The notes: generated by a model from the letters alone, not told the origin. 64,000 nucleotides of DNA from Nitrospinaceae bacterium (GCA_965237905.1 OZ250172.1:736001-800000), one strand, 5' to 3'; numbered from the stretch's first letter, positions 36,852 to 51,794 are shown. A program made the numbers and translations.

Positions 36852-37769
36852 ATGGCGGAAAACACACAATTCAGTTACGGACCGGAAACCCTATCGGAGA
36901 TTTCCTCCCTCAGCATCCGGGCCATCCAATTGGTCGAAGGCCTGCTGTCGGGTCACCACCGGAGCCCTCATAAAGGCTCCAGCGTTGAATTCGCGGAATA
37001 CAAGGACTACTCGCCAGGCGACGATATCCGCCATATCGACTGGAAAGTGGTGGGCAAAACGGACAAATACCACGTCAAGCAGTTCGAACAATCCACCAAT
37101 CTGAAATGCACAATTCTGCTCGACGCCAGCGGGTCCATGGCCTACCGCTCACCCGACTCTAAATCCCCCGGCATGGACAAAAGGGATTATGCGCGCACGC
37201 TGGTGGCGGCCATGGGATACCTCCTCTTAAAACAATTTGACGCTGTGGGACTGACCCTGTTCAACGACGAAGTGGTGTCGCATCTTCCTCCCCGGTCCAA
37301 ACCCTCGCATTTCCAGAATATTCTGAATGGGTTGCAGGATATGGAGTTCAAGGGAGTCACCCGGGTGGAAGAAGTGGTGGGAGATTTGATCGAACGCCTG
37401 CCGGGGCGTGGCATGCTGATTTTGGTCTCCGACCTGTTAACGCGGGAAGACGATGTATTCAAAACGCTCAAAATGCTCAAGTCCCGCGGGCTGGAGGTCA
37501 TTCTGTTTCACGTCCTCCACCCGGACGAAGTAACCCTGCCGTTTGAAGGCGACCTTGTTTTTGAATCGCTGGAGGACGATCCGCCTTTGGGACTGGACCC
37601 ATTCGACGTGCGCCAACAATATCAGAAAGCCATTCAAGATCAGATCGGGTTCTACACAAAGAACTGCCCGACTTTGGGTATCGATTATCTGTTTTTGGAA
37701 ACCACCACGCCGCTGGAACAGGCGTTACGGTATTATCTTCTCCGCCGAAAAAGTTTGCGAAAAATATGA
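36852..37769 (+). CDS. DUF58 domain protein
   Basis: GHHRSPHKGSSVEFAEYKDYSPGDDIRHIDWK, LLDASGSM. Confidence 0.93.
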   Translation: MAENTQFSYGPETLSEISSLSIRAIQLVEGLLSGHHRSPHKGSSVEFAEYKDYSPGDDIRHIDWKVVGKTDKYHVKQFEQSTNLKCTILLDASGSMAYRSPDSKSPGMDKRDYARTLVAAMGYLLLKQFDAVGLTLFNDEVVSHLPPRSKPSHFQNILNGLQDMEFKGVTRVEEVVGDLIERLPGRGMLILVSDLLTREDDVFKTLKMLKSRGLEVILFHVLHPDEVTLPFEGDLVFESLEDDPPLGLDPFDVRQQYQKAIQDQIGFYTKNCPTLGIDYLFLETTTPLEQALRYYLLRRKSLRKI

Positions 37770-39919
37770 ATTTCAGTTTCACATCCCCGTGGTACCTGCT
37801 GGGACTGTTAGGCCTGGCGCTACCGATCCTGATCCATTTACTGACCCGCCGCCAGCAGACCCGGCTCAAATTTTCAGCGGTCTACCTGTTGCAACAGGCG
37901 CAGAAGCGGACGGTGCGCAAATCCCGGCCCAACAAGCTCCTCCTCCTGCTCTTGCGTTGTCTGGCGATCGGTTTTCTGTGCCTGGCGCTGGCCAATCCCA
38001 TTCTTTCGTCCGGCGGCCTGGAGAATGTTCTGGCGTCACGTCCTTCCGCCCATGTGTTTATTCTGGATGATTCCTACAGCATGTCCGCGACGAGCGATCA
38101 GGGAACTTTGTTCGACCGGGCGACGAAGACACTGACGGAACTGATCGAGAAACTTCCCAGCAACCATTCCTTCAGTCTTGTGCTCGCATCCGATCCCGCC
38201 CGCATGGTGCAGGACTGGACGGAAGACCCAGGCAAAACCCTGAAATGGTTAAAGGCGGCCCAACCCACACATCGCACCACCAGCATCGGCAAAGCCGTGA
38301 CTGCGGCGGCCGATCTCCTAAATACCGCGCCACAGGAAAACAAACGGGTTTTTATCCTGACCGATATGGATCAGAACGGCTGGGACCGGGATGAATTCTC
38401 CACGGCGTTTGCAGAAGATTCACGAACCCAGATCAAAATCATCGACTTTTCAGAATCACAAAAAGGACTCAACCGGGCGCTCGTGCAGAAGGTCAAACTG
38501 AATCAGGAATTCCTCACCAACCGCCGGGTCATCCGGGTGCAGGCCACGATCGTCAACCTGCTACCGGACCGGGCCATCAAGCAACTCCCCGTCACCCTGT
38601 TCGTCAACGGCAAGCGGCAGAGCGAAAGCACAATCGATCTGCCCGCCCAAGGCGAGGCGACTCATGAATTTTCGTTCCCTTTATTGAATAGTGATCCGAT
38701 TTTGGGCCATGTTGAAATTCAGGAAGACGCTCTGACGGCGGACAATCGGCGTCTGTTCGTCTATCAACCCGACCGCAAAATCAAAGCACTGGTGGTGGAT
38801 GGCGACCCGCGCGGTGTAGCACATCAGCACGACTCGTTTTATGTCGAGAAAGCCCTCAATCCGTTTTCTTCCCCCATGGCCGATATCGAGCCCACTGTAT
38901 CCACTCTCTCGGAATTTTCGGAACGGGATTTGAAACAGTATTCCGTGATCATTTTGTGCAACGTCCGGGACCTGGCGATCGGCCTCGAACAAGAACTGGA
39001 AAAATTCGTACTGCGGGGCGGCTCTTTGTTCATCGGTCTGGGAGATCAGGTCGACCCCAAATACTACAATGAAAAATTGGGGTTGCTTCTGCCGGTTACT
39101 TTGAAATCCATCAATCAGGTGAGAACCAAGGACAAGCCGTTCTACCTTAGGGCGCAACCCAGTGATCATCCGGCCTTGAAGGTGTTTACCGGAAGCATGT
39201 TAAAGGAGATGGCGCGTATTCCTTTTCGGACCCTCTACAGTATCGAACCCCGGCGCGGCAGAGCGTTTCAGGAGCCGATGCATTTCACCAACCAATTCCC
39301 CGCAGTGATCGAATCGGAGTTCGGCGAGGGCAAGGTTATCCTGTATGTCTCTTCTCTGGATCGGGACTGGAACAATTTCCCCATTCACCCCACGTTTCTT
39401 CCCTGGATCCAACGCTGGGTGAAATACACCGCGCAGGGCCTCGAAAATATTTCCCGCCACGACGTAACCGTGGGCGCACCGCTGGTGCTGGAGGAAATGG
39501 AACAACCGCCGTTGGTGGTCGCGCCCGGCGGCAAAATTTCCATCGCCCGGAAAAATCCCCAGTCGCCCCCGGTGTTTGAAGACACCCATCGCCCGGGAGT
39601 TTATGAATTGTATCAATGGGCAGGGCCGCCCGTTTCCGGTTCGGCGGATTCTCCACCCCCTGCGCCTAAACAGTTGCCCTCTGATGCCAAACGGTTGGGA
39701 AATTTTACCGTCAATTTCGATCCGGCAGAATCCGCCCCTGGCAAAGTTCCTGAAAAGGAATTGTCGCAATATTTTCCCGGAGCGCAGGTGGACTATTCCC
39801 CGGCCGATCAGGCGCTGAACGCGGCCTCGGTCGGCGCTGGCGTGCCTCTGACCACCCTGTTGTTCCTGATGCTGGCAGTCATGATGTTCTGGGAGGGTTG
39901 GGTCGTCCGTAAAGAATGA
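37766..39919 (+). CDS. BatA N-terminal plus vWA domain membrane protein
   Basis: LPILIHLL..R...FSA; MIDAS ILDDSYSM; ILTD; GATase-like middle region; C-terminal TM. Confidence 0.88.
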   Translation: MNFSFTSPWYLLGLLGLALPILIHLLTRRQQTRLKFSAVYLLQQAQKRTVRKSRPNKLLLLLLRCLAIGFLCLALANPILSSGGLENVLASRPSAHVFILDDSYSMSATSDQGTLFDRATKTLTELIEKLPSNHSFSLVLASDPARMVQDWTEDPGKTLKWLKAAQPTHRTTSIGKAVTAAADLLNTAPQENKRVFILTDMDQNGWDRDEFSTAFAEDSRTQIKIIDFSESQKGLNRALVQKVKLNQEFLTNRRVIRVQATIVNLLPDRAIKQLPVTLFVNGKRQSESTIDLPAQGEATHEFSFPLLNSDPILGHVEIQEDALTADNRRLFVYQPDRKIKALVVDGDPRGVAHQHDSFYVEKALNPFSSPMADIEPTVSTLSEFSERDLKQYSVIILCNVRDLAIGLEQELEKFVLRGGSLFIGLGDQVDPKYYNEKLGLLLPVTLKSINQVRTKDKPFYLRAQPSDHPALKVFTGSMLKEMARIPFRTLYSIEPRRGRAFQEPMHFTNQFPAVIESEFGEGKVILYVSSLDRDWNNFPIHPTFLPWIQRWVKYTAQGLENISRHDVTVGAPLVLEEMEQPPLVVAPGGKISIARKNPQSPPVFEDTHRPGVYELYQWAGPPVSGSADSPPPAPKQLPSDAKRLGNFTVNFDPAESAPGKVPEKELSQYFPGAQVDYSPADQALNAASVGAGVPLTTLLFLMLAVMMFWEGWVVRKE

Positions 39920-40009
39920 CCCGGATTCCCCCCGTATGTTTGCGAAACTCATTCTGCTATAATAATTTAAGCCCATGCAGTATCAATTCGTATAACTGTT
40001 GAGTTTTCT

Positions 40010-42526
40010 ATGAATTTCCGAGCACACCCCACTGCCAAATTGATCGGGACTCTGGCTCTCTGTCTGACTTTGACCGGAGCGATGCCCTCCCAAGCCGCGA
40101 CCCAGATCTCGGTAACGGAAGAACTGGTCGCCACCCTGGCCCTTCCGGAAAACAAGATCGATCTGGCCGAAACGCTCCTTTTGATCTCGCGTCATTGGGA
40201 CCCCCGGCTGGACACGGCCCCTCTCAAGAAAACGCTGGGCCGGTTGACCGAATCGGCCCGCAGTCAACTCAAGGGCAATCCCTCCCCGAAGCAAACCGTT
40301 GAAATTCTGCGCAAGGTCATTCATGAGGAGGGGAAATACCGTTACACCGAGGCGCTGGACCCGGCGGGCATGCCGGTCAATCCGGCTGAATTGTTTCTGC
40401 ACGGGCTGTTACAGACCCACCGGGGTTATTGCATGAACCTGTCCCTGCTGTATCTCATCCTCGCCGAGCGATTGAACCTGCCGTTGGTCGGGGTGCCTCT
40501 GCCGAATCATTTTTTCGTGCGTTACGACTCGTCGGAGTACCGGGTGAATATCGAAGCGACGGAAGGGGGAACAGCGTTTCCCGATTCGTTTTACGAACAA
40601 CGGTTTGGTGTGGCTAAGGGTTCGAAATACTTCCTGACCAATCTGGGTAAGAAACAAACGCTGGGGGCCTACTTCTCGAATGTCGGGCTGGTCATGTACC
40701 GCGCGGCCAAACCTCAGATCGCTATTTTTTATCTGGAGCAGTCAGCCAGCATCAATCCGCAATCCATTGACGCGCTCAACAACCTGGGTAACATCTACTC
40801 GGAATTAAAACAACACGACAAATCCATCCACGCATACGAGCGGGCCTTGAAGGCCGACCCTGGAAATTTTTCCACATTGTCCAACCTGGGACTGGCCTAT
40901 ATGGAAACGAATGCTCTGGAAAAAGCCGAAGAGACATTCCTGCAGGCAACGCAGATCAATCCTCGGTATCATCTGGCACATGAAATGCTGACGCGGATTT
41001 ACATGCAACGGAAAAAGTTTGCGAGCGCACTTCTCCATTTGAAAATCATGAAACGCCTGCAACCGGGACGGCTCCTCACCGAATTGAACATCGGAACCGT
41101 GCTCCTGGAAATGGGTCAGGCGGAACTGGCCCTGAAATACTTCGAAGACCTGCAAAGCCGCTACCCGCAGGCCATCGAGGTCAACCAACGTATAGCGGAG
41201 ACGCACTACCGGCAGAAGGAGTACCCAAAAGCGATCGTTCAATATGAGTTCATCATCGAGCGCGCTCCCCGGTTCATTGAAAATTACATTCAACTGGGGT
41301 GGATTCATTACCAAATGGGAAGCATCGCGAAGGCTATCGAAGTCACCCGGCAGGGCCTTCGGTCCAGCCCACAGGCGAACCGGCTCACCACTCTGGCCCA
41401 CATGAACCTGGGGTTTTATCATGTGCTTGAAAAAAAATTCGGTGCCGCCGAGAAGTGGTACCAGAAAGCACTCAACGCCGAAGACCCGAAAGCGGTCGAT
41501 GCGATGATCGAGGATTTGAGCGGTGCCTTCAAAAATTATCCCGGTATTCCTGAAATGAATTATTTCGGCGGGTGGATTTTATTCCAAGGCGGCCAGAAGG
41601 ATAAAGCCCGACAATGGCTCGACCGTTACCTGGCCCAAAGTCCCAAAGGCCCTTTTGCCGGAAAAGCGCGGAGCTTTCTGAAAAAAGTTGCGCTTTCGGT
41701 GCCGGAAGACATGATTCTGGTTCCCAAGGGATTTTTCATCATGGGAGCCAACGGGCACGGCGATGACGAAGCTCCGGAACACAAGGTTTACCTGGACTCC
41801 TACTTTATCGATAAATATGAAGTGACGGCAGCTCAGTTCGCCACGTTTTTAAACGATGTCAAAACCTTCAAGGAATTTTATAAGGACAGCAAATTCGGCA
41901 TGCTGATACTGGAAAAGGATTTCAGGCCCCGTAAAGGTTTGGAATCCTATCCTATCAACAACGTGACCTGGTTCGGAGCGGCGGCCTTCTGCAAATGGAA
42001 GAACAAGCGCCTGCCCACCGAAGCGGAATGGGAAAAAGCGGCGCGTGGAACCGGGGGAAACTTCTTCCCATGGGGAAACGATCCGATCGCCCCGCAAAAA
42101 GCCCGGTATCTACAGGACTGGACCGAAGAGATCGCCCACCGCGTGATGGTCCCGGTCAATTCCATGCCGGAGGGAAAAAGCTCATTTGGGCTGTTTCACA
42201 TGCTGGGTAACGTCAAAGAATGGGTGGACGACTGGTATGATCGGGAGTATTATAAGGAACAAAATCACAAGTTAAATCCAAAGGGACAGATCGGGGGGGA
42301 GTTCAAAGTCCTCAAAGGCGGGTCGTGGAGAGACCTCAGGTCCTTTGTTTACGCCTCCTTCCGGAACAACAGCTACCCGAATACGGCACTGGACGATTAT
42401 GGGTTCCGGTGCACTCAGGATGGGCTGGAAAGTTCCGCCCCCAAGCGGCTGACTTCTCTGGAACATTTATTCATTCCAGCACGGCTGGAACATACGCCTC
42501 AGGGAGGCTCAGGACACAATCCATGA
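40010..42526 (+). CDS. Transglutaminase-like (SirB1) / TPR / FGE-sulfatase fusion protein
   Basis: GYCMNLSLLY...PNHFFVRY...NIE; multiple TPRs; FIMG..APEHKV, KYEVT, RLPTEAEWEKAARG, GNVKEW, GFRC. Confidence 0.88.
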   Translation: MNFRAHPTAKLIGTLALCLTLTGAMPSQAATQISVTEELVATLALPENKIDLAETLLLISRHWDPRLDTAPLKKTLGRLTESARSQLKGNPSPKQTVEILRKVIHEEGKYRYTEALDPAGMPVNPAELFLHGLLQTHRGYCMNLSLLYLILAERLNLPLVGVPLPNHFFVRYDSSEYRVNIEATEGGTAFPDSFYEQRFGVAKGSKYFLTNLGKKQTLGAYFSNVGLVMYRAAKPQIAIFYLEQSASINPQSIDALNNLGNIYSELKQHDKSIHAYERALKADPGNFSTLSNLGLAYMETNALEKAEETFLQATQINPRYHLAHEMLTRIYMQRKKFASALLHLKIMKRLQPGRLLTELNIGTVLLEMGQAELALKYFEDLQSRYPQAIEVNQRIAETHYRQKEYPKAIVQYEFIIERAPRFIENYIQLGWIHYQMGSIAKAIEVTRQGLRSSPQANRLTTLAHMNLGFYHVLEKKFGAAEKWYQKALNAEDPKAVDAMIEDLSGAFKNYPGIPEMNYFGGWILFQGGQKDKARQWLDRYLAQSPKGPFAGKARSFLKKVALSVPEDMILVPKGFFIMGANGHGDDEAPEHKVYLDSYFIDKYEVTAAQFATFLNDVKTFKEFYKDSKFGMLILEKDFRPRKGLESYPINNVTWFGAAAFCKWKNKRLPTEAEWEKAARGTGGNFFPWGNDPIAPQKARYLQDWTEEIAHRVMVPVNSMPEGKSSFGLFHMLGNVKEWVDDWYDREYYKEQNHKLNPKGQIGGEFKVLKGGSWRDLRSFVYASFRNNSYPNTALDDYGFRCTQDGLESSAPKRLTSLEHLFIPARLEHTPQGGSGHNP

Positions 42527-42802: not shown

Positions 42803-43279
42803 TCAATAATTGAATCCGTTATCGCGGACGTGAAAGTAAGGGTCTCCCCCCTTCAACATTTTGCCGCTGACGATTTCTCCGACATACACCACATGGTCTC
42901 CGAATGCAGTCTGCTCGCGCAGTTCGCATTCCATATAGGCCACAGCATCGCTCAGCACTTTGATATCGTGAAACCCCTTGCTCACTTTTAATCCGTCAAA
43001 CACCGAAACGCCGGGCACCGGAGCTTTGAAGAAATGCTTCATCAAGTCGTTCGAATTCTTGCCCAACACGTTCACGATGAACGCTTGGGACGCCTCGACC
43101 AGAAGCCGCCCCTGACGTGCCACCCCCAGTGCCACGGTCAGTGCGGGCGGGTCGAACGAACACTGGTTGACCCAGCTGGCCAACACCGCGTCCTCTTTAT
43201 CTTTATGTTTTGCCGTCACCACAAACAGGCCGCTCGGAACGCGGCCCAAGGCTTTGCCTACCTCTTTTTTATGTTTCAA
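42803..43279 (-). CDS. Flavin reductase family protein
   Basis: PSGLFVVT, ASWVNQCSFDPP, GDHVVYVGEI. Confidence 0.92.
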   Translation of the reverse strand: MKHKKEVGKALGRVPSGLFVVTAKHKDKEDAVLASWVNQCSFDPPALTVALGVARQGRLLVEASQAFIVNVLGKNSNDLMKHFFKAPVPGVSVFDGLKVSKGFHDIKVLSDAVAYMECELREQTAFGDHVVYVGEIVSGKMLKGGDPYFHVRDNGFNY

Positions 43280-43379
43280 TGTCCACTCCTCAAAAAAAAA
43301 CCCATGAATCCAGATAATTTAAAAGGGCTCATTATACCCAAAACCGGCCTGGGAAACCCCGTCTCCTCCACACCAGAAC

Positions 43380-43748
43380 TTATTCTTTTTTGTTTTGCGA
43401 CCGGAATTTTTTCAAGGCCTTGATCAATTCCATCTGGGACACCCAGCCCTGTGACACCAGAATCTCCCCCAACAGGCGGTTGGTGTGCGTTTGCCGCTCC
43501 AGTAACGCCTCCACCTGTTCCTGACTCAGGTACTCCATCTCAACGGCCAGTTTTCCGAAGTTTTTAGATTTTTCTTCCGGTTTCCTCTGACGGGACAGAA
43601 TCCGAAACAACTGCTTGTTGTCGATCAATCCTTTTTGCAGAGCCAACTGTCCCAGCGGCACCCGGTCGGTTTTCTGGATTTCCAGTGCACGGGCCAGGTC
43701 CTTTTCCTGAATGATACTCTGCGCTACAAGATATTCTCCAAAAATCAC
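43380..43748 (-). CDS. Stand-alone protein of four MshEN/GSPII_N-like motifs
   Basis: FGEYLV...LARALEIQ; LGQLALQKGLI...ILSRQ; FGKLAV...LLERQ; LGEILVSQGWV...LIKAL. Confidence 0.8.
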   Translation of the reverse strand: MIFGEYLVAQSIIQEKDLARALEIQKTDRVPLGQLALQKGLIDNKQLFRILSRQRKPEEKSKNFGKLAVEMEYLSQEQVEALLERQTHTNRLLGEILVSQGWVSQMELIKALKKFRSQNKKE

Positions 43749-43763
43749 AGACAGAAGTCCTTT

Positions 43764-45995
43764 CTACTTGGTCCGCATGGCAAAAACACCGTCCCAATCC
43801 GGGGGCGGCGGATGATACTGAAACGTGATACACCGTTCGAAATAAGTCAGCGACGGGCCGTCGTCTTCGTACAGATTCAACGCGTTTTCAAAACAGGTGA
43901 TGCCCTCCTCCCACCGCTGGTTTTTATAATGGTCCAGACCCTCCTGGAAATGAGGAAGAATGAGGCGGATGTGGTCTTCCATCTCCCCCTTACGCCCGAG
44001 CAGTTCGTAAATCTTGATAGGCTCTTTTTTACCGACCACACGGATGGAGTCCAACTCGCGCGCTTCGATATCGTTCTTCGCCAACTCGTAGGTGAATTCG
44101 CTGAGCATGGTGTACGTCTGGTATTGCTTGTTAGCGCCCTCGAGCCGTGCCGCCACGTTCACCGGATCGCCTATCATGGTGTAATCGAACCGGTTCTCGG
44201 AACCCATGTTGCCCACCGTCACCTGCCCGGTATTGATACCGATGCGCATGAATAATTCATGCCGGCCCTTTCTTTTCCAGATGTTCCGCAACTCAGCCAG
44301 CCGTTTCTGCATATCCAGCGCGGCGTAGCAGGTTCGGGTGGCATGATCTTTAAAATCGATGGGCGCGCCGAAAAACGCAATGATGGCGTCGCCTTCGAAC
44401 TTGTCAACCGTCCCTTCGTATTGCATGACAATGTCGGTCATCTCCGTTAAATACTCATTCAATAAAATCACCAGTTCGCTCGCGGTCAACTGTTCTGAAA
44501 TCGAGGAGAAATTCGCCGCGTCCGAGAAAAAAGCCGTCAATACTTTGTCTTCTCCTCCCAGGTTCAAGAGCTTGGGATTTTCCACCAACTGATCCACCAC
44601 CGCCGGAGCCAGGTACTGGCTGAATGCGCTTTTGATAAACCGTTTTTCCCGTTCTTCAAATGTGAAGCGGTATAACGTAATTCCAAAATAAACCAGGAAT
44701 TGGGAAAACAAGGGGGATACCGTATGAACCCACAATCCCTGCCGGGTAAATAATATATAATCGCAGACTAGGTATCCCCCCACTCCCACCACCAGCAAGA
44801 TGGCGGTGCCAACGGCTTTGAAATAAAGGGCGACCAAACCCAACAAAATACCGGTCACCAGAATCATCGTCATATCCAGAACGGGGACCCAGGATGGGCG
44901 CTTGAGAAAATCCTGTTGAAGGATGTTTTCAATCATATTGGCGTGTACCTCCACCCCAGGATAAAGAGGACCATAAGGGGTGGTATGCAAGTCATGCAGG
45001 GCGGGGGCGGTACCGCCGACCAGGACAATTTTATCTTTCAACTGGATCGACCCCACAGTGCCATCGATGACGTCGGATGCGGACAAATAGCTAAACGTCT
45101 GTTTTGGTCCGTAATAATTCACCAGAAAATTCCCTTCCTCCGTAACGGGAATCGGGGAATCCCCCAACCGTATTTCCCCCACGCGGTGAGGAAAAATACG
45201 AACGACGGCACTCAGCTTGGTGGCTTCCCGCAACAATTGCAGACTGAATGGCGGAAATACCGCCTCCTTATGCATGCGCACCATGGGCATAAAGCGAATA
45301 ACCCCGTCGCGCCCCGGCCAAAACGACACGTAACCCGTGCTGTTGGCGGCATCCATCAACGAAGGCAGACTGAGGCCTACCGCATAAATGGGTCGCAGAA
45401 AATCGGGGGTAATCAATTGGTCGCTGAACTGCACCATTGAGTACTGGGAAAAATCCAGCAGTTCGAACTCCTTGGGTCCCATCATCGCCGCAGAATCTTC
45501 AGCCGCCTGCTCTGCTGTGGCGTACACAAAATAACCCAGTACCGTCCGCTCCGACCGGCGGATCGCATCGGCAAACCTGGAATCTGAATCACTTATTTCT
45601 TCCAGCAAATTCACCAGTTTCTTCCGGCTCATGCCAGACACGACTTTCTTCGCAATTTCATTTTTAACTTTATCGAGAGGAATGTAGGCTTCCTTTTCGG
45701 GGAAAAAAAAGTCGAAACCGATCACCGCCGCACCGGATTCAGTCAACTTGTCCACCAGCGTCGCCAGTCGGGTACGCGGCCAGGGCCAGCGTCCTTCCCG
45801 TTTCAAGCTGTGCTCATCAATGGCGACGATCACCACCTGGCCGGAAACCGGCCGCGTGCCCCGCAGGGACATTTTAAAATCGTAAGCCTTGGATTCCAGT
45901 AGCTCAAAAAGGGGAAGATTGAGGGAATAAATGAAAAGGGAAAACAGGGTGATCAACACAGAGACTGTAAAGGCGTTCAGCCAGCGAATTTTCAT
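43764..45995 (-). CDS. CHASE2-domain class III adenylate cyclase
   Basis: IVAIDE..GRWPWPR, PGVEVHAN, 3 TM; FSDAANF, DKFEGDA, RIGINTG, YTMIGDPVNVAARLE; TPR-like tail. Confidence 0.95.
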   Translation of the reverse strand: MKIRWLNAFTVSVLITLFSLFIYSLNLPLFELLESKAYDFKMSLRGTRPVSGQVVIVAIDEHSLKREGRWPWPRTRLATLVDKLTESGAAVIGFDFFFPEKEAYIPLDKVKNEIAKKVVSGMSRKKLVNLLEEISDSDSRFADAIRRSERTVLGYFVYATAEQAAEDSAAMMGPKEFELLDFSQYSMVQFSDQLITPDFLRPIYAVGLSLPSLMDAANSTGYVSFWPGRDGVIRFMPMVRMHKEAVFPPFSLQLLREATKLSAVVRIFPHRVGEIRLGDSPIPVTEEGNFLVNYYGPKQTFSYLSASDVIDGTVGSIQLKDKIVLVGGTAPALHDLHTTPYGPLYPGVEVHANMIENILQQDFLKRPSWVPVLDMTMILVTGILLGLVALYFKAVGTAILLVVGVGGYLVCDYILFTRQGLWVHTVSPLFSQFLVYFGITLYRFTFEEREKRFIKSAFSQYLAPAVVDQLVENPKLLNLGGEDKVLTAFFSDAANFSSISEQLTASELVILLNEYLTEMTDIVMQYEGTVDKFEGDAIIAFFGAPIDFKDHATRTCYAALDMQKRLAELRNIWKRKGRHELFMRIGINTGQVTVGNMGSENRFDYTMIGDPVNVAARLEGANKQYQTYTMLSEFTYELAKNDIEARELDSIRVVGKKEPIKIYELLGRKGEMEDHIRLILPHFQEGLDHYKNQRWEEGITCFENALNLYEDDGPSLTYFERCITFQYHPPPPDWDGVFAMRTK

Positions 45996-46080
45996 GGGAG
46001 AATTTTAACACAAGGGGAATTGACAAGGAAAAAGTCAGGTGAAGAAAAACCACCGGTCAAGCGGATTCGATTGCCCTGAA

Positions 46081-47676
46081 TCAACAGCCGCCTGAACCAC
46101 CGTTCTGGAAAAAATCGGTGAGAAAGGAGCTCAAGGACCCCTGCTGGACGGAATTGGTGTCGATGGAAGGCAAAGGCTGGGACCTGCCGCCTCCGCCGGT
46201 TCCGTTACCATTCAGTATCAAATCACGGGTTTCACCGAACGACGACTCATCGGCATTGATATTGACTGCACTTATATCGATATCGCGTGCTGAAACGATG
46301 GCCACGTCGGGAGCCACGTTGAAATCGCCTTTGCCATTCCCTTCGCTGTCTGCCACCGCAATAAAATCGGTCTTGGTGGTGGTGACGTCGGCATTCACGT
46401 TGATATCGTTGACAGCCAATAACTTCAAAGTCGGGAAGGCAGAAGCCATTTCTACAAAATTAATGTTCGCGCCGGACTCTAAGATCACAGAGTCTGTAAT
46501 GCCGTCTGTATCGTTCTCGGTTATGCCTTTTACGTTGATGTCGCCGTCCGTTTTCAGTATCAGATTCTCTGCGACGATATGGCGAATATCGTTGCTACCC
46601 ACACTTCCATGGGGATTATTGCCGGACTCGATATTCAGATCGCCACCGTCCGCGAGAGTGAAGAGGACGTCGCCGGTGCCGCTGTTCAGATAGCCCTTCA
46701 GGTCCAGATGATTGGCTACGATATCGATGTCCCCATTGTTGGTCGACAGGGAATTGTTTGCTGATACTGCCACCGCCTCCGCTGTGATAAAGACCTCGGA
46801 GGCATCCAGCGTTCCGGAAACCTCAACATTGCCGCCTCCGCCGGACAAAATGATCTTGCCGTCTTTCTGCTTGACTGTTTGGGCTTCGATGATTCCGGAA
46901 TGATTGATTACGTTGCTGATCACGTCGCCGGCAGATCTCGCTGTCAGTAAAACCTGTCCACCGTTGGCGCGAATGAGTCCGGAATTGTTGATTTGATCAT
47001 AGAGCACATTGCCCTTTGCGTCGGCCACCACGAAACTGATCAGGCTGTCGCCATTGAAATCCAGGGTCGCCGCCGTGCCGGAGGCCAGGACCACGGATCC
47101 CAGGTCCGCCACGATAATGGAACCGTTATTTTCCACCGCCGGAGCGGCCAGGCCGACATAACGGGCGGCATTTATGGTTCCGTTATTGATGACAGCGACC
47201 AGGCGGTTCGGGTCTTGTGAAAACTGATAATTGCCTTTCAGAAAATCGTCGTTGGAGATGTTAAGCGTGGTCGCCAGCAGGCCATGGACATCCACCTTGG
47301 CGTTCTGTCCGAATACCACTCCGGAGGGATTGCTCAGAAACACCTGACCGTTGGCAGAAAGTTTGCCGAGAATGATGCTGGGGTCCACGCCGATCACCCG
47401 ATTGAGCGCCACCGAGTTGATGTCGGGTTGCTTGAACGTGACCGATTCCTTCGAACCGATGCTGAATCCCTGCCAGTTGGTGATCAACTGTTGGGTATTC
47501 TGCTGAATCACCATATCCTGCTTTGAGGGTTGTTCGATACTGCCGGTTCCGGAGACAATCTCCCCGCCATTGGGCAGGGCATTCACCCATCCGGGTGTTA
47601 CCGCCCACAGGCCCACCAAAAGGCTGATGGCCAGCCGGTTCAATCTGCGGGTTTGTTTCGGTTCCAATTTGCGCAT
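46081..47676 (-). CDS. TpsA exoprotein (filamentous haemagglutinin N-terminal domain), short
   Basis: Signal peptide, LPNGGEIVSG, NWQGFSIG, LNRV, NGQVFLSNPSGVVFG; beta-helix-like repeats. Confidence 0.92.
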   Translation of the reverse strand: MRKLEPKQTRRLNRLAISLLVGLWAVTPGWVNALPNGGEIVSGTGSIEQPSKQDMVIQQNTQQLITNWQGFSIGSKESVTFKQPDINSVALNRVIGVDPSIILGKLSANGQVFLSNPSGVVFGQNAKVDVHGLLATTLNISNDDFLKGNYQFSQDPNRLVAVINNGTINAARYVGLAAPAVENNGSIIVADLGSVVLASGTAATLDFNGDSLISFVVADAKGNVLYDQINNSGLIRANGGQVLLTARSAGDVISNVINHSGIIEAQTVKQKDGKIILSGGGGNVEVSGTLDASEVFITAEAVAVSANNSLSTNNGDIDIVANHLDLKGYLNSGTGDVLFTLADGGDLNIESGNNPHGSVGSNDIRHIVAENLILKTDGDINVKGITENDTDGITDSVILESGANINFVEMASAFPTLKLLAVNDINVNADVTTTKTDFIAVADSEGNGKGDFNVAPDVAIVSARDIDISAVNINADESSFGETRDLILNGNGTGGGGRSQPLPSIDTNSVQQGSLSSFLTDFFQNGGSGGC

Positions 47677-47701
47677 GATGCACTATCCTCTGGATCCTGC
47701 C

Positions 47702-48505
47702 TCAGCCTGAGCACGAATCCGATTCATCTTCCTCGAATAAATCATATTCTTCCTTTAAGGCATCCGTCACAATGGAGCCTTGCCGGGGTTTTTCACGGTA
47801 ACGCGAACCCACCGCACCCATGACCACCTGCTGGATCAGGCTCTGCTCGGAACCCGTCAAAGCTTCCGGTTGCGTCGGCGGTTTGCCTTCTTCAACGACC
47901 GTTTTCATCATCTGCCCGACCATCACGTCCCCAATAACGGTGGGGTCGGCATTGAGAACCCGGATAGCGCCCGCTTGATTGGCAACCAGCGTTTTGAGTT
48001 GCGAAACGCTTAAATACCCCTGGGTACCGCGCGCCGCCACATTGGCGGTGGGGGAAAGGATTTTGAAATGGGATTTGGGATGCTTCTGTTCCTTATTGAC
48101 AATATACATGGAAATGCCGTGGCCGATGCTGATCACACCCTGACGAAGCTTCTCCTTGGCATCAAACAGATAGGACGAAATCTTCATCCGGGAGTTGGGG
48201 CCGAGGGCCATCAGGCTGGAATCTTCAAACAAAATACGCAGGCGGCTCTTGCGGCCGGTCCGAAACTCATCGCTGGCATACACCATCTGCTTGGGTTGCA
48301 ACTTCTGCCAGGGGGTCAATGACACTGGAACCACCTGGCCGGGTTGGGCATTGGCTACCGATTCCTCACCACCCGGCAGATATTCCGCGCTTCCAATAAT
48401 GGCGATAATCTTGCCCACCGGTTTTTTCTCCGCCCAGGCATTCGCCGGAAGAATCAAAATCACCACCGCCAGCAAGGCCAATCCTTTTCCTAAAAGCTTG
48501 ATCAT
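47702..48505 (-). CDS. Secreted FecR-domain protein
   Basis: Signal peptide AWA/E; D.FRTG..S...LFEDSSLMALGPNS; SPTANVAARGT. Confidence 0.85.
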   Translation of the reverse strand: MIKLLGKGLALLAVVILILPANAWAEKKPVGKIIAIIGSAEYLPGGEESVANAQPGQVVPVSLTPWQKLQPKQMVYASDEFRTGRKSRLRILFEDSSLMALGPNSRMKISSYLFDAKEKLRQGVISIGHGISMYIVNKEQKHPKSHFKILSPTANVAARGTQGYLSVSQLKTLVANQAGAIRVLNADPTVIGDVMVGQMMKTVVEEGKPPTQPEALTGSEQSLIQQVVMGAVGSRYREKPRQGSIVTDALKEEYDLFEEDESDSCSG

Positions 48506-48726
48506 CCCTTTACTCCTGCAAATTTCAATATTCCTGCATTGATGGAAACATTATATGCGTAAATGTAAATAAATGGAGGAGAAATATAGGAAATCCACAA
48601 AAATACCCCAAAAGGGGTTGTTTTTTATGTCTTTAGAACAATAAAAACTTTAGTCTTTTTTAGATATTTCGGGCAAATCCAGGAAAAGCTTGAACTCAAA
48701 TTTACAAAGAGAGTCTGAAATCAGGG

Positions 48727-50478
48727 CTAGAAGGAAATCATGCCATTGAGATAGAGCGTGTTAGAGGATCCATCCGAGGGCTCTGGACCCCCAAATGCGG
48801 GGAATCCGTAGGCGAGGGAAAAGCTGACGGCAGGGTAGTTTTCCCCCAAGGGAGGTATATTCAATCGCACTCCAAGGCCCACACCATTTAACTCCCGGTC
48901 ACTCTCACCGGCTTGCCGGTTTTTGATAAACACCTGGCCGTGGTCCAGAAAAGCAAAAAAGGATAGCACCTGGTCCAGTTGTATTGTCCGGGGATTCTTG
49001 AGCACTGTCACTTTGAAGGGAAAGGGAATCACCAACTCCGTGGATATGTAATACCCGTTGTCCCCTGCCGCTTCCGCCAGCGGGTATCCCCGCACCGATC
49101 CGAACCCACCGATCGCGAACTGATCCGGAGAAAGCACCCTTTTGGAAGCGACTTGGCCTTTAGCCTTCACCGTCAAATAGGTTTTCCCAATGAAAGCGGA
49201 CTGGTATCGTGTGACATCGAAACTGGAAAGCAAGGCATCGCCGCGCCCCTGAAACCGTGAATTCAGCGGATCGGAAACGTCACGTTCGCTGAAGCCCTGT
49301 TGCAGGCGCAGGGTATAAAACGTGCGAGCGCGTAGCGGGTCCTTGAAGAAACCCCCAACCGCAAAATAGACATCGCGCAATTTGTCGTCACTGGAGGAGG
49401 ATCCTGCAAGATCGTTTTCAAAGTTGCGAATCTCCCCACCCAGGCTCAAATAAAATTCAGAGCTACGAGTCCGGATCAGGGAATGACTTATATCCATGGT
49501 GAATATGTTGGCCTTACCGCCGGCGTTCAACACCGCCAGATCACCGCCCAAATTGAATTCGGTAAAAATGTACGACAGAGTGGCGGTAGTGCCATAGGGA
49601 CCAATGGGGATCGAATAGGAGGGATTGATGAAATCCTGATCCTCGTTGGACTTGACCCCGCGTATGGACAAGCGGTCACCCAACAATAACAGGCTTCCGG
49701 CTTCTGCCGTCAAACCGTACCGTTGCTCTCCGGTAAACCGGGAACCGAAATTGTCCGCGTCGAAAGCAATGCGGTAAGGTCGGGATTCCTCCGTCTGTAA
49801 CGTCAAGTCCGATGTGCCGAACACCTCCCCCGGTTTCAGGACGGCTTTTACATTCAATCCCTGTATGGCGTTCAATCCCAGAAGATATTTTTCCAGGGTG
49901 CTTTCCTTGAGAGCCGGGTCATCCTGCAGCGGTTTCAACCGTGCCAGGATTTCCTCCCGCTTGAATTTCTCGTTCCCCTCCACTTCAATTTTACCCAACT
50001 TGCCCTCAACCACTTGAATGGTTACGGTCCCGTTATCAATTTCCTGCTCCGGAACATAGACGCGGGTTAAGATATATCCCTTCGTGGTGTACTCAAGATT
50101 GATTTCCTGTGCGATGAGGTGGAGGATGCCGAGAGTCACTTCCAACCCGTCGCCCACCTCCAGAATAGGCGCCAGAGTGGCGTCATCGATCAACGTGTTG
50201 CCAGTCACTTCGATCTTTTTGACGATGAATTTAGGACCCGCCCCCGGGTCGACCACGGTACGGCTGTCCTTGATGGAAAGAGGCGGGAGTTCTTCTTCGG
50301 GAGGTTGGAGCTGGGGCTGGGACTGCTCCAGCGCTTTTTGGCCCACGCCGGATTCTCCCGCAGGGGGTACCGAAACCTGAGCCTGCAGGAGCGAAGGAAA
50401 CACCACCGCACTCCCAAAAGAACTAAGAGCAATGAATAGCAGACAGAGTTTGAGCGTGGTCCTGTTCGATTGGATTAT
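48727..50478 (-). CDS. TpsB outer-membrane transporter (ShlB/FhaC/HecB)
   Basis: POTRA motifs (IEVTGNT, GYILTRV, VVEG), DNFGSRFTG, GGFGSVRGY, terminal Phe; start uncertain (see findings). Confidence 0.93.
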   Translation of the reverse strand: MIQSNRTTLKLCLLFIALSSFGSAVVFPSLLQAQVSVPPAGESGVGQKALEQSQPQLQPPEEELPPLSIKDSRTVVDPGAGPKFIVKKIEVTGNTLIDDATLAPILEVGDGLEVTLGILHLIAQEINLEYTTKGYILTRVYVPEQEIDNGTVTIQVVEGKLGKIEVEGNEKFKREEILARLKPLQDDPALKESTLEKYLLGLNAIQGLNVKAVLKPGEVFGTSDLTLQTEESRPYRIAFDADNFGSRFTGEQRYGLTAEAGSLLLLGDRLSIRGVKSNEDQDFINPSYSIPIGPYGTTATLSYIFTEFNLGGDLAVLNAGGKANIFTMDISHSLIRTRSSEFYLSLGGEIRNFENDLAGSSSSDDKLRDVYFAVGGFFKDPLRARTFYTLRLQQGFSERDVSDPLNSRFQGRGDALLSSFDVTRYQSAFIGKTYLTVKAKGQVASKRVLSPDQFAIGGFGSVRGYPLAEAAGDNGYYISTELVIPFPFKVTVLKNPRTIQLDQVLSFFAFLDHGQVFIKNRQAGESDRELNGVGLGVRLNIPPLGENYPAVSFSLAYGFPAFGGPEPSDGSSNTLYLNGMISF

Positions 50479-50699
50479 TCAACGTCCGGTCTAGTCGGCG
50501 CTTACATCGCCGGTTGGATCATCCGCCGAACCCTCCCCCAAACGTCATCACTTGTTCGGCAATTCCATATTAAGTGGATAAGTCATTATATATCATTTAG
50601 ATAGAGGAAGCCATCCGAGACTTGGTTTTTCCGGGGAAGAGGCCTTTGTTAAAGCCCACCTTATGCACCGGAAAGATAACCGGAATGGAGTGATTTCTC

Positions 50700-51794
50700 T
50701 TATTCGATAGGCGAGTTGTTGCTAACTTTACAGGTTCCGTTGGCCGCCCATTTTCCGGGGATGGGTTCCCGGCAATCGGGGCAGGACCCGTTTTCGAGGG
50801 CGTTGGCGAGAACCTGAAATCCGTAACGTTCGATCAGGGTTTTTCCGCATTGCGGACACATCGTGTTTTCGGTATCGCCCACATGGCCGGGGCGGTTGCC
50901 GGAATAAACGAATTTGAGACCCGCCTTCACTCCTATTGTTCGGGCACGCAGGAGGGTTGCCACCGGGGTGCTGTCCCGGTCGGTCATCTTGTAAAGCGGA
51001 TGAAAGCCGGTGACGTGCCACGGGATGTCCTCGGAAACGGAGGCGACAAACTCGGCCATCTGAGTCAATTCTTCATCGGAATCATTGTAATCGGGAATCA
51101 CCAGCGTTACGATCTCCGTCCAGAATCCCATGGCATACACCTGCCGAATGGTTTCCAGAACCTCTTCAAAGTTCCCGCCCAGCTTCAAATACTTTTTCCG
51201 GTCGAAACATTTGAGGTCGATCTTAAACAGATCCAGCCACGGTTGCACGTACTCCAGCACTTCCGGTGTACCGTGGCCGTTGGAGACATAACCGGTGACC
51301 AATCCTCTGCTCTTGGCTTCCTTGAACACCTCGACCGCCCATTCGGAGGTGATCAACGGTTCGTTATACGTGGAAACTACGGTTCGGGAACCCTGCTGTT
51401 CGGCGAGGTCGCATAGGCCTTGAGCAGTTATGGCGTCAAAATCAAGCGTGGCGGCATCATCGCGAAGCGTCTGGGAGGTGAACCAGTTCTGGCAGTAGGC
51501 GCAACGGAAATCGCACCCCAGCATGCCGAAACTCATTGCCTGGGTTCCGGGCAGGGCATGAAAAAACGGTTTCTTTTCGATGGGATCGTTGTGAATGCCG
51601 GCGGCGTAGTTGAAAGGAACCTTCAACACGCCATCCGAATCGCTGTACCGGACCTTGCAGACTCCCCGTTGGCCGGGGCGCAATTGGCAACGGTGCCCAC
51701 AGGCCGTACAAATCAGCGAACCTTTTTCAAGAGGAATGAACAGTTCGCCGGGGCGGGTGTTTTCATCCAGTAAAGTTTGAGTTGTGGGTGTCAT
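50700..51794 (-). CDS. amrS: AmmeMemoRadiSam system radical SAM enzyme
   Basis: CTACGHRC, DPIEKKPFFH, GCDFRCAYCQNW, TYNEP, PWHVTGFHP, CPQC, CPDC. Confidence 0.93.
   Translation of the reverse strand: MTPTTQTLLDENTRPGELFIPLEKGSLICTACGHRCQLRPGQRGVCKVRYSDSDGVLKVPFNYAAGIHNDPIEKKPFFHALPGTQAMSFGMLGCDFRCAYCQNWFTSQTLRDDAATLDFDAITAQGLCDLAEQQGSRTVVSTYNEPLITSEWAVEVFKEAKSRGLVTGYVSNGHGTPEVLEYVQPWLDLFKIDLKCFDRKKYLKLGGNFEEVLETIRQVYAMGFWTEIVTLVIPDYNDSDEELTQMAEFVASVSEDIPWHVTGFHPLYKMTDRDSTPVATLLRARTIGVKAGLKFVYSGNRPGHVGDTENTMCPQCGKTLIERYGFQVLANALENGSCPDCREPIPGKWAANGTCKVSNNSPIE

Follow-up and report, generated by a model that had tools for sequence, protein, structure and literature searches.

Proteins with a FecR domain that are encoded beside CHASE2 membrane sensors are already in print. 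In Burkholderiales, a LysM-FecR protein occurs with a CHASE2 histidine kinase, and the arrangement is described as the 'BiofilmReg' operon in Burkholderia (PMC5192318), while a cluster in Campylobacterota encodes a CHASE2 cyclase together with a FecR protein, a TPR protein and a phosphodiesterase (PMC9239204). For S. meliloti, CyaD1 is described as a CHASE2 cyclase and SMc02177 as having a FecR domain (PMC5498481), and perception of the signal requires NsrA, a protein of the outer membrane (PMC7529298, PMC13001267). The signal sensed by CHASE2 is stated to be unknown (PMC5192318). Here we examine a locus in which a two-partner secretion (TPS) pair is encoded with a FecR-domain protein and a predicted CHASE2 adenylate cyclase; in the literature searched, we found no paper that ties FecR-CHASE2 to two-partner secretion. 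The locus lies in a stretch of 64,000 nucleotides from a Nitrospinaceae bacterium (GCA_965237905.1, OZ250172.1:736001-800000), referred to throughout as the window, and positions are counted from its first letter.

TPS systems in which the exported protein is held back are also known. The TpsA proteins HMW1 and HxuA keep their C-termini periplasmic, an intramolecular disulfide locking them in the pore, and in CdrA the tail left in the periplasm is cleaved by LapG under second-messenger control (PMC5422565). In the window, the only exported cysteines of the module are a single one near the C-terminus of the FecR-domain protein and a single one at the C-terminus of TpsA. We propose that TpsB, TpsA, the FecR-domain protein and the CHASE2 adenylate cyclase form a trans-envelope device, in which the fibre would be tethered by a disulfide in trans to the FecR protein, which in turn would talk to the cyclase; we put the probability of this reading at roughly 45%. 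It takes its start from what was observed directly: the genes present and their conservation, a lone cysteine in each of two proteins, a complete set of catalytic residues, and purifying selection.

A conserved module of five genes

The five genes of the module are all on the minus strand, in the order tpsB, fecR, tpsA, cyclase gene and small gene, and are separated by gaps of 221, 25, 85 and 15 bp (from coordinates), much as an earlier note made from the sequence alone had laid them out. TpsB (48727..50478, 583 residues) is a two-partner-secretion (type Vb) transporter with a signal peptide, a POTRA domain and a ShlB/FhaC-type Omp85 barrel of the 16-strand type (Pfam ShlB, 5.6e-30 over the full model, 1-311; POTRA_2, 6.5e-20). 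It contains the sequence VRGY, which we take to be the L6 loop motif. The FecR-domain protein (47702..48505, 267 residues) matches Pfam FecR (PF04773) at 2.4e-10 and 41.1 bits, against a cut-off of 24. TpsA (46081..47676, 531 residues) matches Pfam TPS at 1.1e-37 and no further family, the cyclase (43764..45995, 743 residues) matches CHASE2 (1e-65), Guanylate_cyc (9.1e-22) and, weakly, TPR, and the MshEN-like small protein (43380..43748, 122 residues) has sub-threshold Pfam matches only. TPS, ShlB, FecR and CHASE2 each have one match in the 3.09-Mb single-contig genome, and all four matches lie within the cluster. With these sole copies, and with an order that is kept in related genomes, the clustering of the five genes is far beyond chance.

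We searched species-representative genomes with a FecR alignment (one peptide pattern), which yielded 30 loci, all from Nitrospinota or mis-binned relatives; open reading frames were called in these loci and searched with the window proteins. The genes form one conserved module across this set. TpsB is directly upstream of FecR in 23 of the 30 loci, and TpsA adjoins FecR in 26, two of these being remnants of 122-137 residues; TpsA is found elsewhere in the locus in L019 and is absent from L025, and the contig ends too early in two loci. Where DNA is available, 14 of 15 loci have the cyclase after a complete TpsA, and 11 of 15 have the small protein after the cyclase. TpsA ranges in length from about 530 to more than 3,200 residues across the loci. 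The two remnants (L008 645-1016 and L010 2389-2799) keep the signal peptide and the Cys-ending tail and have lost the TPS domain; L008 has no cyclase gene and retains the MshEN-like gene, and in L010 tpsB is present as fragments.

A full-length FecR orthologue (best E <= 1e-60) was found in 33 of 120 sampled Nitrospinota genomes. Within the window's own family, 13 of 21 genomes have the FecR orthologue together with TPS, six have neither, two have FecR with a TpsA remnant only, and none has TPS without FecR. A TPS match lies within about 200 bp at 15 of the 17 places with a FecR orthologue; of the 24 TPS matches in the family, nine belong to different, mostly giant TpsAs whose loci have no FecR of the window type. 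The six genomes that lack both include all four of genus g4, which are 96-99% complete and keep CHASE2 proteins of other sizes and architecture. FecR and TpsA have therefore been gained or lost together, more tightly than either has with the CHASE2 family.

This tight pairing, adjacent in 26 of 30 loci (some without a cyclase in the available DNA) and concordant for presence or absence in 19 of 21 genomes, could also be explained if FecR were only an accessory for the secretion or anchoring of TpsA, such as a stopper or chaperone, and if the cyclase owed its place beside them to common regulation or history and exchanged no signal with them. The persistence of CHASE2 of another architecture in g4, where FecR and TPS are missing, would suit this account. 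However, a cyclase that follows complete TpsA in all but one of the judgeable loci does not sit easily with it, and FecR genes accompany CHASE2 in unrelated bacteria whose clusters are described without TPS (PMC5192318, PMC9239204), which argues that FecR has business with CHASE2 itself. We consider the accessory account distinctly unlikely.

All five genes are under purifying selection. Ratios of nonsynonymous to synonymous substitution (dN/dS) against four relatives lie between 0.06 and 0.25 across the module, with TpsA evolving fastest (tpsB 0.10-0.18, tpsA 0.22-0.25, small protein 0.06-0.16).

Lone C-terminal cysteines of the FecR protein and TpsA

The FecR protein consists of a signal peptide, the FecR domain (79-180), a conserved extension and an acidic tail with a single cysteine, C265. 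It opens with a 25-residue signal-like segment that has nothing ahead of it, and there is no cytoplasmic domain. The earlier note had seen a signal peptide, no anti-sigma domain, and neither an extracytoplasmic function (ECF) sigma factor nor a TonB receptor nearby, and this description holds: the closest Sigma70_r2 match lies at a distance of about 91 kb and the closest TonB-dependent receptor at about 100 kb, both outside the 64-kb window. The features of a FecR-type anti-sigma factor (cytoplasmic domain, membrane anchor, adjacent ECF sigma factor or TonB transducer) were thus not found in the protein or its surroundings, and iron signalling of the FecIRA type was ruled out, there being no anti-sigma part, ECF sigma factor or TonB transducer. 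Many of the more distant secreted FecR-like proteins end in a Pro-rich stretch and then a short hydrophobic strand (for example ...VNVNIVF or ...VTITFAP), a C-terminal signature of another kind.

TpsA has the makings of a type Vb passenger, with a signal peptide and an N-terminal TPS domain (48-290), and one gene lies between tpsA and tpsB. The TPS domain is followed by a beta-rich shaft to about residue 492, a linker, the helix SLSSFLTDFF, a Gly-rich end and Cys531. The best fold matches of TpsA are the secretion domains of EtpA, HMW1 and HxuA (3e-8 to 1e-5); its structural model has a mean confidence (pLDDT) of 63 overall, with 80-94 for residues 300-490 and a disordered linker at 494-516. 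At 531 residues (about 55 kDa), the protein is below the range of about 100-650 kDa that a review gives for TpsA proteins (PMC5422565), and it matches no Pfam family beyond TPS, which agrees with the description of a short TpsA without a recognisable toxin or enzyme domain from which the analysis started. A TpsA toxin or a contact-dependent inhibition system was ruled out, since the protein is only 531 residues long and no toxin or immunity domain was found.

The cysteines of these two proteins are conserved in position. In all 31 complete FecR C-termini the distance from a Cys to the end is 2-7 residues, and C265 is invariant in the FecR alignment; in TpsA the Cys is last or second-last in 16 of 16 complete C-termini, 15 of them directly and the sixteenth in L023, where the gene is frameshifted and the downstream frame ends in Cys. 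In the window, the FecR protein and TpsA have exactly one Cys each (C265 and C531). The single Cys of TpsB is in its signal segment, so that mature TpsB has none, and the four of the cyclase are in membrane or cytoplasmic parts, leaving the periplasmic CHASE2 part without Cys. C265 and C531 are consequently the only exported cysteines of the module. A two-Cys intramolecular loop of the HMW1/HxuA type was not found in TpsA, of which Cys531 is the sole cysteine; therefore no such loop can form, and any disulfide must join another protein. A disulfide in trans between TpsA and the FecR protein would be the simplest reading of these paired lone cysteines. The link between the two proteins for which the earlier note had argued is in this respect strengthened, as the conserved lone C-terminal Cys in both suggests, from sequence, a physical tie.

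Cyclase output and the MshEN-like protein

The cyclase has a transmembrane segment, a periplasmic CHASE2 domain (about 30-368), a transmembrane bundle, a catalytic domain (486-665) and a TPR-like C-terminus. Hydrophobic segments at 11-29 and 372-390 bracket the CHASE2 domain (Pfam match, residues 21-386), and with CHASE2 flanked by transmembrane segments and followed by the catalytic domain, the protein belongs with the class III cyclases of the CHASE2-receptor type. Residues D492, K532, D536, T606, N613 and R617 are invariant in 14 orthologues. Presumably the two Asp are the metal-binding pair, the Asn and Arg act on the transition state and the Lys specifies adenine. The same residues align with those of the adenylate cyclase CyaB of P. 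aeruginosa, whose structure (3r5g) is the best solved relative of the catalytic domain (2.8e-39). From the Lys/Thr pattern and from receptors for cyclic nucleotide monophosphates (cNMP) encoded nearby in relatives, the product is most likely cyclic AMP (cAMP).

The idea of a cyclic-nucleotide output is thus supported, the catalytic residues being intact and cNMP receptor genes being present in or beside the module in 8 of 30 related loci. These genes encode CRP-type regulators (L013 412-1110, L014 9108-9812 and L020 4960-5715; also in L024, L030 and L031) and, in each of L022 (3643-6152) and L027 (1413-3912), two tandem cNMP-binding histidine kinases. In the window's genome we found seven cNMP-binding matches and no CRP-type regulator with a helix-turn-helix (HTH) match. 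Two of the seven belong to cNMP-PAS-GGDEF-EAL proteins, which are encoded outside the window (G000:C1, about 2302804-2304669, L047; and 2871301-2873136, L049), and cAMP could therefore act on the turnover of cyclic di-GMP (c-di-GMP). Prediction of a complex between FecR residues 26-267 and CHASE2 residues 30-368 gave scores of 0.01 and 0.05 against a mark of 0.32, which speaks neither for nor against binding.

The small protein, whose gene begins 15 bp after the cyclase gene, is cytoplasmic. It had been described as '4xMshEN'; the number four is right for its 24-residue MshEN-type repeats and wrong for domains, as the repeats form two 24-5-24 units. A phmmer search against the PDB found Thermus PilF (3.3e-6) and the N-domain of MshE (5htl, 2.4e-4). 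The structural model (pLDDT 83) has eight helices, and its top five Foldseek matches are all c-di-GMP-bound MshE or PilF-GSPIIB, at a root-mean-square deviation of 1.1-1.8 A over 57-58 columns, with E values of only 0.4-0.9 because the match is short. None of the 10 members of the small-protein family matches the Pfam T2SSE_N model at E <= 1, and nine of the 10 have a sub-threshold match to DUF4388 (PatA_N). Compared with the MshEN motif, all four repeats have another residue (I, P, N and L) in place of the first Arg, the Gly and Leu positions and the Gln are mostly kept, and repeats 1 and 3 have no central Gly. In MshEN, changes of charged residues cost less than fivefold in affinity, and the solved relatives bind c-di-GMP (PMC5013675). 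The suggestion that this protein is the effector of the cyclic nucleotide made by the cyclase is thus not supported; by analogy with the solved relatives, we infer a c-di-GMP-type input or feedback adaptor rather than a cAMP receptor.

The proposed relay, its rivals and its described relatives

In the device that we propose, TpsB would export the beta-helical TpsA, N-terminus first. The last 40 or so residues of TpsA would stay in the periplasm, with Cys531 disulfide-bonded to Cys265 of the FecR protein, which would act as a periplasmic stopper that keeps the fibre in the pore. The FecR domain would touch the periplasmic CHASE2 domain non-covalently, and pulling, binding, cutting or loss of the fibre would alter the activity of the cyclase. 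The resulting cAMP would be read by cNMP-binding proteins, which in relatives may be the CRP-type regulators or cNMP-binding kinases of the module; no cNMP receptor lies beside the module in the window genome, and the two cNMP-PAS-GGDEF-EAL proteins encoded elsewhere in it are possible readers. The MshEN-like protein would be coupled to the cyclase, most likely as the c-di-GMP-type input or feedback adaptor discussed above. The disulfide, the contact between FecR and CHASE2, the direction in which the signal runs and the part played by the small protein are all proposed here rather than observed. A more specific version, in which TpsA is a disulfide-tethered tripwire, the FecR protein sits on CHASE2, force, binding or loss directly sets cAMP, and cAMP acts through c-di-GMP turnover back on the cyclase via the MshEN-like protein, is offered tentatively and strikes us as doubtful in its entirety. 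Of the relay that the earlier note had imagined, the conserved module, the pairing of FecR with CHASE2 and a cyclic-nucleotide output, most likely cAMP, are supported, and the MshEN effector and the single five-gene transcript are not.

Several findings weigh against the proposed device, and they concern the start of tpsB, the transcription of the module, the need for a fibre and the generality of the cysteines. The tpsB frame opens with ATA (50478-50476) straight after a TGA, and there is no ATG, GTG or TTG at 50478, whereas all five close relatives have ATG at the start codon. The N-terminal hydrophobic segment of TpsB is present only if translation begins at 50478; the first canonical start is a GTG at 50406, use of which would delete the signal peptide. 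The open reading frame and family assigned to TpsB in the earlier note are thus borne out, and its start at 50478 has none of the three usual codons. Contigs from two runs of a single sample, which is probably the source, have the ATA as well. Within tpsB, at 48963-49048, run X2 also has low-depth variants (5-7 against about 214) with a one-base gap, which may reflect a minor strain or error.

The changed start raises the question of whether the module is decaying in this genome, with TpsB silenced and the 531-residue TpsA being the shrunken remnant of fibres of 1,000 to more than 3,200 residues. Real decay has occurred in L008 and L010, where TpsA is reduced to 122-137 residues, tpsB is in fragments (L010) and the cyclase is missing (L008). 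In the window, however, there are no stops or frameshifts, the dN/dS values of tpsB and tpsA given above are low, and ATA is a permitted, though weak, bacterial start (table 11). A TpsA of 530-576 residues with an intact TPS domain and tail is found in six other relatives as well. We therefore regard decay as very improbable.

The gap between tpsB and fecR contains further signals on the minus strand (48550..48618): a hairpin, ACCCCTTTTGGGGT, with a T-run at 48618-48605, a perfect TATAAT at 48555-48550, and an AGGAG 9 nt ahead of the fecR ATG, which makes a strong ribosome site. The hairpin with its T-run and the TATAAT are unchanged in seven of seven aligned relatives and divide tpsB from the other four genes. 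In a scan for promoters and terminators, total counts equalled the shuffled (chance) expectation; this hairpin is listed in the scan, and the weight of both the hairpin and the TATAAT comes from their conservation. One transcript of all five genes is not assured, because of the terminator-like hairpin and TATAAT in this gap, and the co-transcription that had been supposed for the module is not supported. The signals suggest that two transcription units are likely.

Upstream of tpsB, at 50482..50590 on the minus strand, there is a perfect TATAAT (50590-50585) and an 89-nt leader (50482-50570). Both are strongly conserved in an alignment of seven close relatives; for the leader RNAalifold predicts a fold of two hairpins, and it is a possible regulatory RNA. 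Positions 43000-51000 have no Rfam match at E <= 1, and a covariance model of the leader, searched against 29 sources, found its own seven training sequences only, plus one match at E = 0.84. The idea of a riboswitch was accordingly not established, with no Rfam match and with a model that recovered its training set only.

The promoter-like site ahead of fecR bears on the main rival to the proposed device, which we think somewhat unlikely. Here the fibre would be an output: the FecR protein and CHASE2 would form a self-sufficient envelope sensor, cAMP acting through CRP would control fecR-tpsA, and the FecR protein would also anchor the fibre. The gene order around CRP-type regulators suits such control, as a CRP-type gene is directly upstream of FecR-TpsA in L014, L024, L030 and L031 and lies between tpsB and fecR in L020. 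In the first four of these loci the available DNA has no cyclase, and FecR-TpsA pairs beside a CRP gene without a cyclase fit a fibre that is not just an input to cAMP but an output of it too. A sensor without a fibre is also found elsewhere. In all five proteobacterial plasmid or chromid loci that were opened (Paracoccus, Ensifer, Methylosinus, Paraburkholderia and Novosphingobium), a FecR gene is adjacent to or one gene away from CHASE2, and these loci have no TPS pair; nor is one described for the Campylobacterota cluster (PMC9239204). A core sensor can therefore do without the fibre. Arguing the other way, the window's genome has no CRP-type HTH regulator, yet the module is under purifying selection in it, and the paired lone cysteines point to a physical tie between FecR and TpsA, not to a regulatory one only. 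Control of the fibre by cAMP can also coexist with the proposed device, as a feedback loop.

Together with published cases (PMC5192318, PMC5498481, PMC9239204), the five proteobacterial loci bear out the co-occurrence of CHASE2 and FecR on which the relay idea had drawn. The rhizobial CHASE2 regions match the window CHASE2 at 28-30% identity, and a search of plasmids and chromids with the FecR protein gave no match at E <= 1e-3. In a Nostoc plasmid (L036 8042-14295), CHASE2 is fused to an AAA-like ATPase and lies beside DUF928 and TPR-CHAT genes rather than FecR; the FecR-CHASE2 pairing is therefore not universal.

Three further observations complete the case against. A Cys is present in the last eight residues of only 11 of 106 distant secreted FecR-like proteins, and these 11 include close-clade fragments and cytochrome-like proteins; as most lack a terminal Cys, the proposed hook is a clade trait. 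In L025, FecR keeps its Cys though no TpsA gene is adjacent. Finally, 7,997 candidates of 768-2,190 residues were scored and none proved to be a fusion of TpsA with FecR, a result that is weak evidence.

The genes next to the module are of other kinds. A radical-SAM gene, NifU, SufS and SufBD (Pfam) lie on one flank, and a flavin reductase, an FGE-sulfatase/TPR protein and a BatA-VWA protein (Pfam) on the other. The plus-strand neighbours at 37766-42526 encode the BatA-VWA protein (717 residues) and a protein of 838 residues with a transglutaminase-like core, TPR and FGE-sulfatase parts, the gene for which stays beside the module in close relatives.

The Nitrospinaceae are a nitrite-oxidising lineage, and we know of almost no signalling biology described for them. 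For CHASE2 and FecR, the module offers a concrete partner, namely a surface fibre that shares with FecR the only exported cysteines. Should the hook and the relay both prove real, the module would be a case of contact, shear or adhesin loss being converted into a cAMP signal in a bacterium, and the recurrence of the FecR-CHASE2 gene pairing across phyla would be explained. If the tripwire version were true as well, it would provide the first defined input of CHASE2 and a new trans-envelope route built on type Vb secretion. The short fibre of 531 residues makes the window version easy to reconstitute.

Compared with known systems that hold a TpsA by its periplasmic C-terminus, namely HMW1/HMW1B and HxuA/HxuB of Haemophilus influenzae and CdrA/CdrB/LapG of Pseudomonas aeruginosa (PMC5422565), the proposed arrangement is similar in principle and different in the means. 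HMW1 and HxuA use an intramolecular loop, whereas the window TpsA has a single Cys and FecR has the only other exported one; unlike the CdrA system, no LapG/LapD-type genes were seen here. The passage of an outer-membrane event inwards by a periplasmic FecR domain recalls FecA-FecR-FecI, and in the VreA-VreI-VreR (PUMA3) system of P. aeruginosa a FecR-type regulator is tied to the secretion pair PdtA/PdtB (PMC2729926, PMC5422565). These systems differ from that of the window, which has no transmembrane anti-sigma factor, ECF sigma factor or TonB transducer, and in which the output is a cyclase. The small protein shares with the MshEN/GSPII domain of MshE two units of two 24-residue helical repeats with a five-residue spacer (PMC5013675), but it is a stand-alone protein of 122 residues without an ATPase, it lacks the first Arg of the motif and it is not matched by the Pfam model.

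The Burkholderia and Campylobacterota pairs share with the module a secreted FecR-domain protein encoded beside a CHASE2 membrane sensor. They differ from it in that their descriptions include no TPS genes, FecR carries LysM or other additions, and the outputs include histidine kinases. Also similar in outline, as far as its description allows comparison, is the NsrA-CyaK/CyaD1/CyaD2-Clr system of S. meliloti, whose regulon includes a FecR-domain protein beside the cyclase gene; no TpsA fibre or pair of terminal cysteines is described there, and the window genome differs in turn in having no CRP-type regulator. By analogy with it, the module may be seen as a variant of the arrangement in which a CHASE2 cyclase acts together with a protein of the outer membrane, one whose link to two-partner secretion appears to be new in the literature searched.

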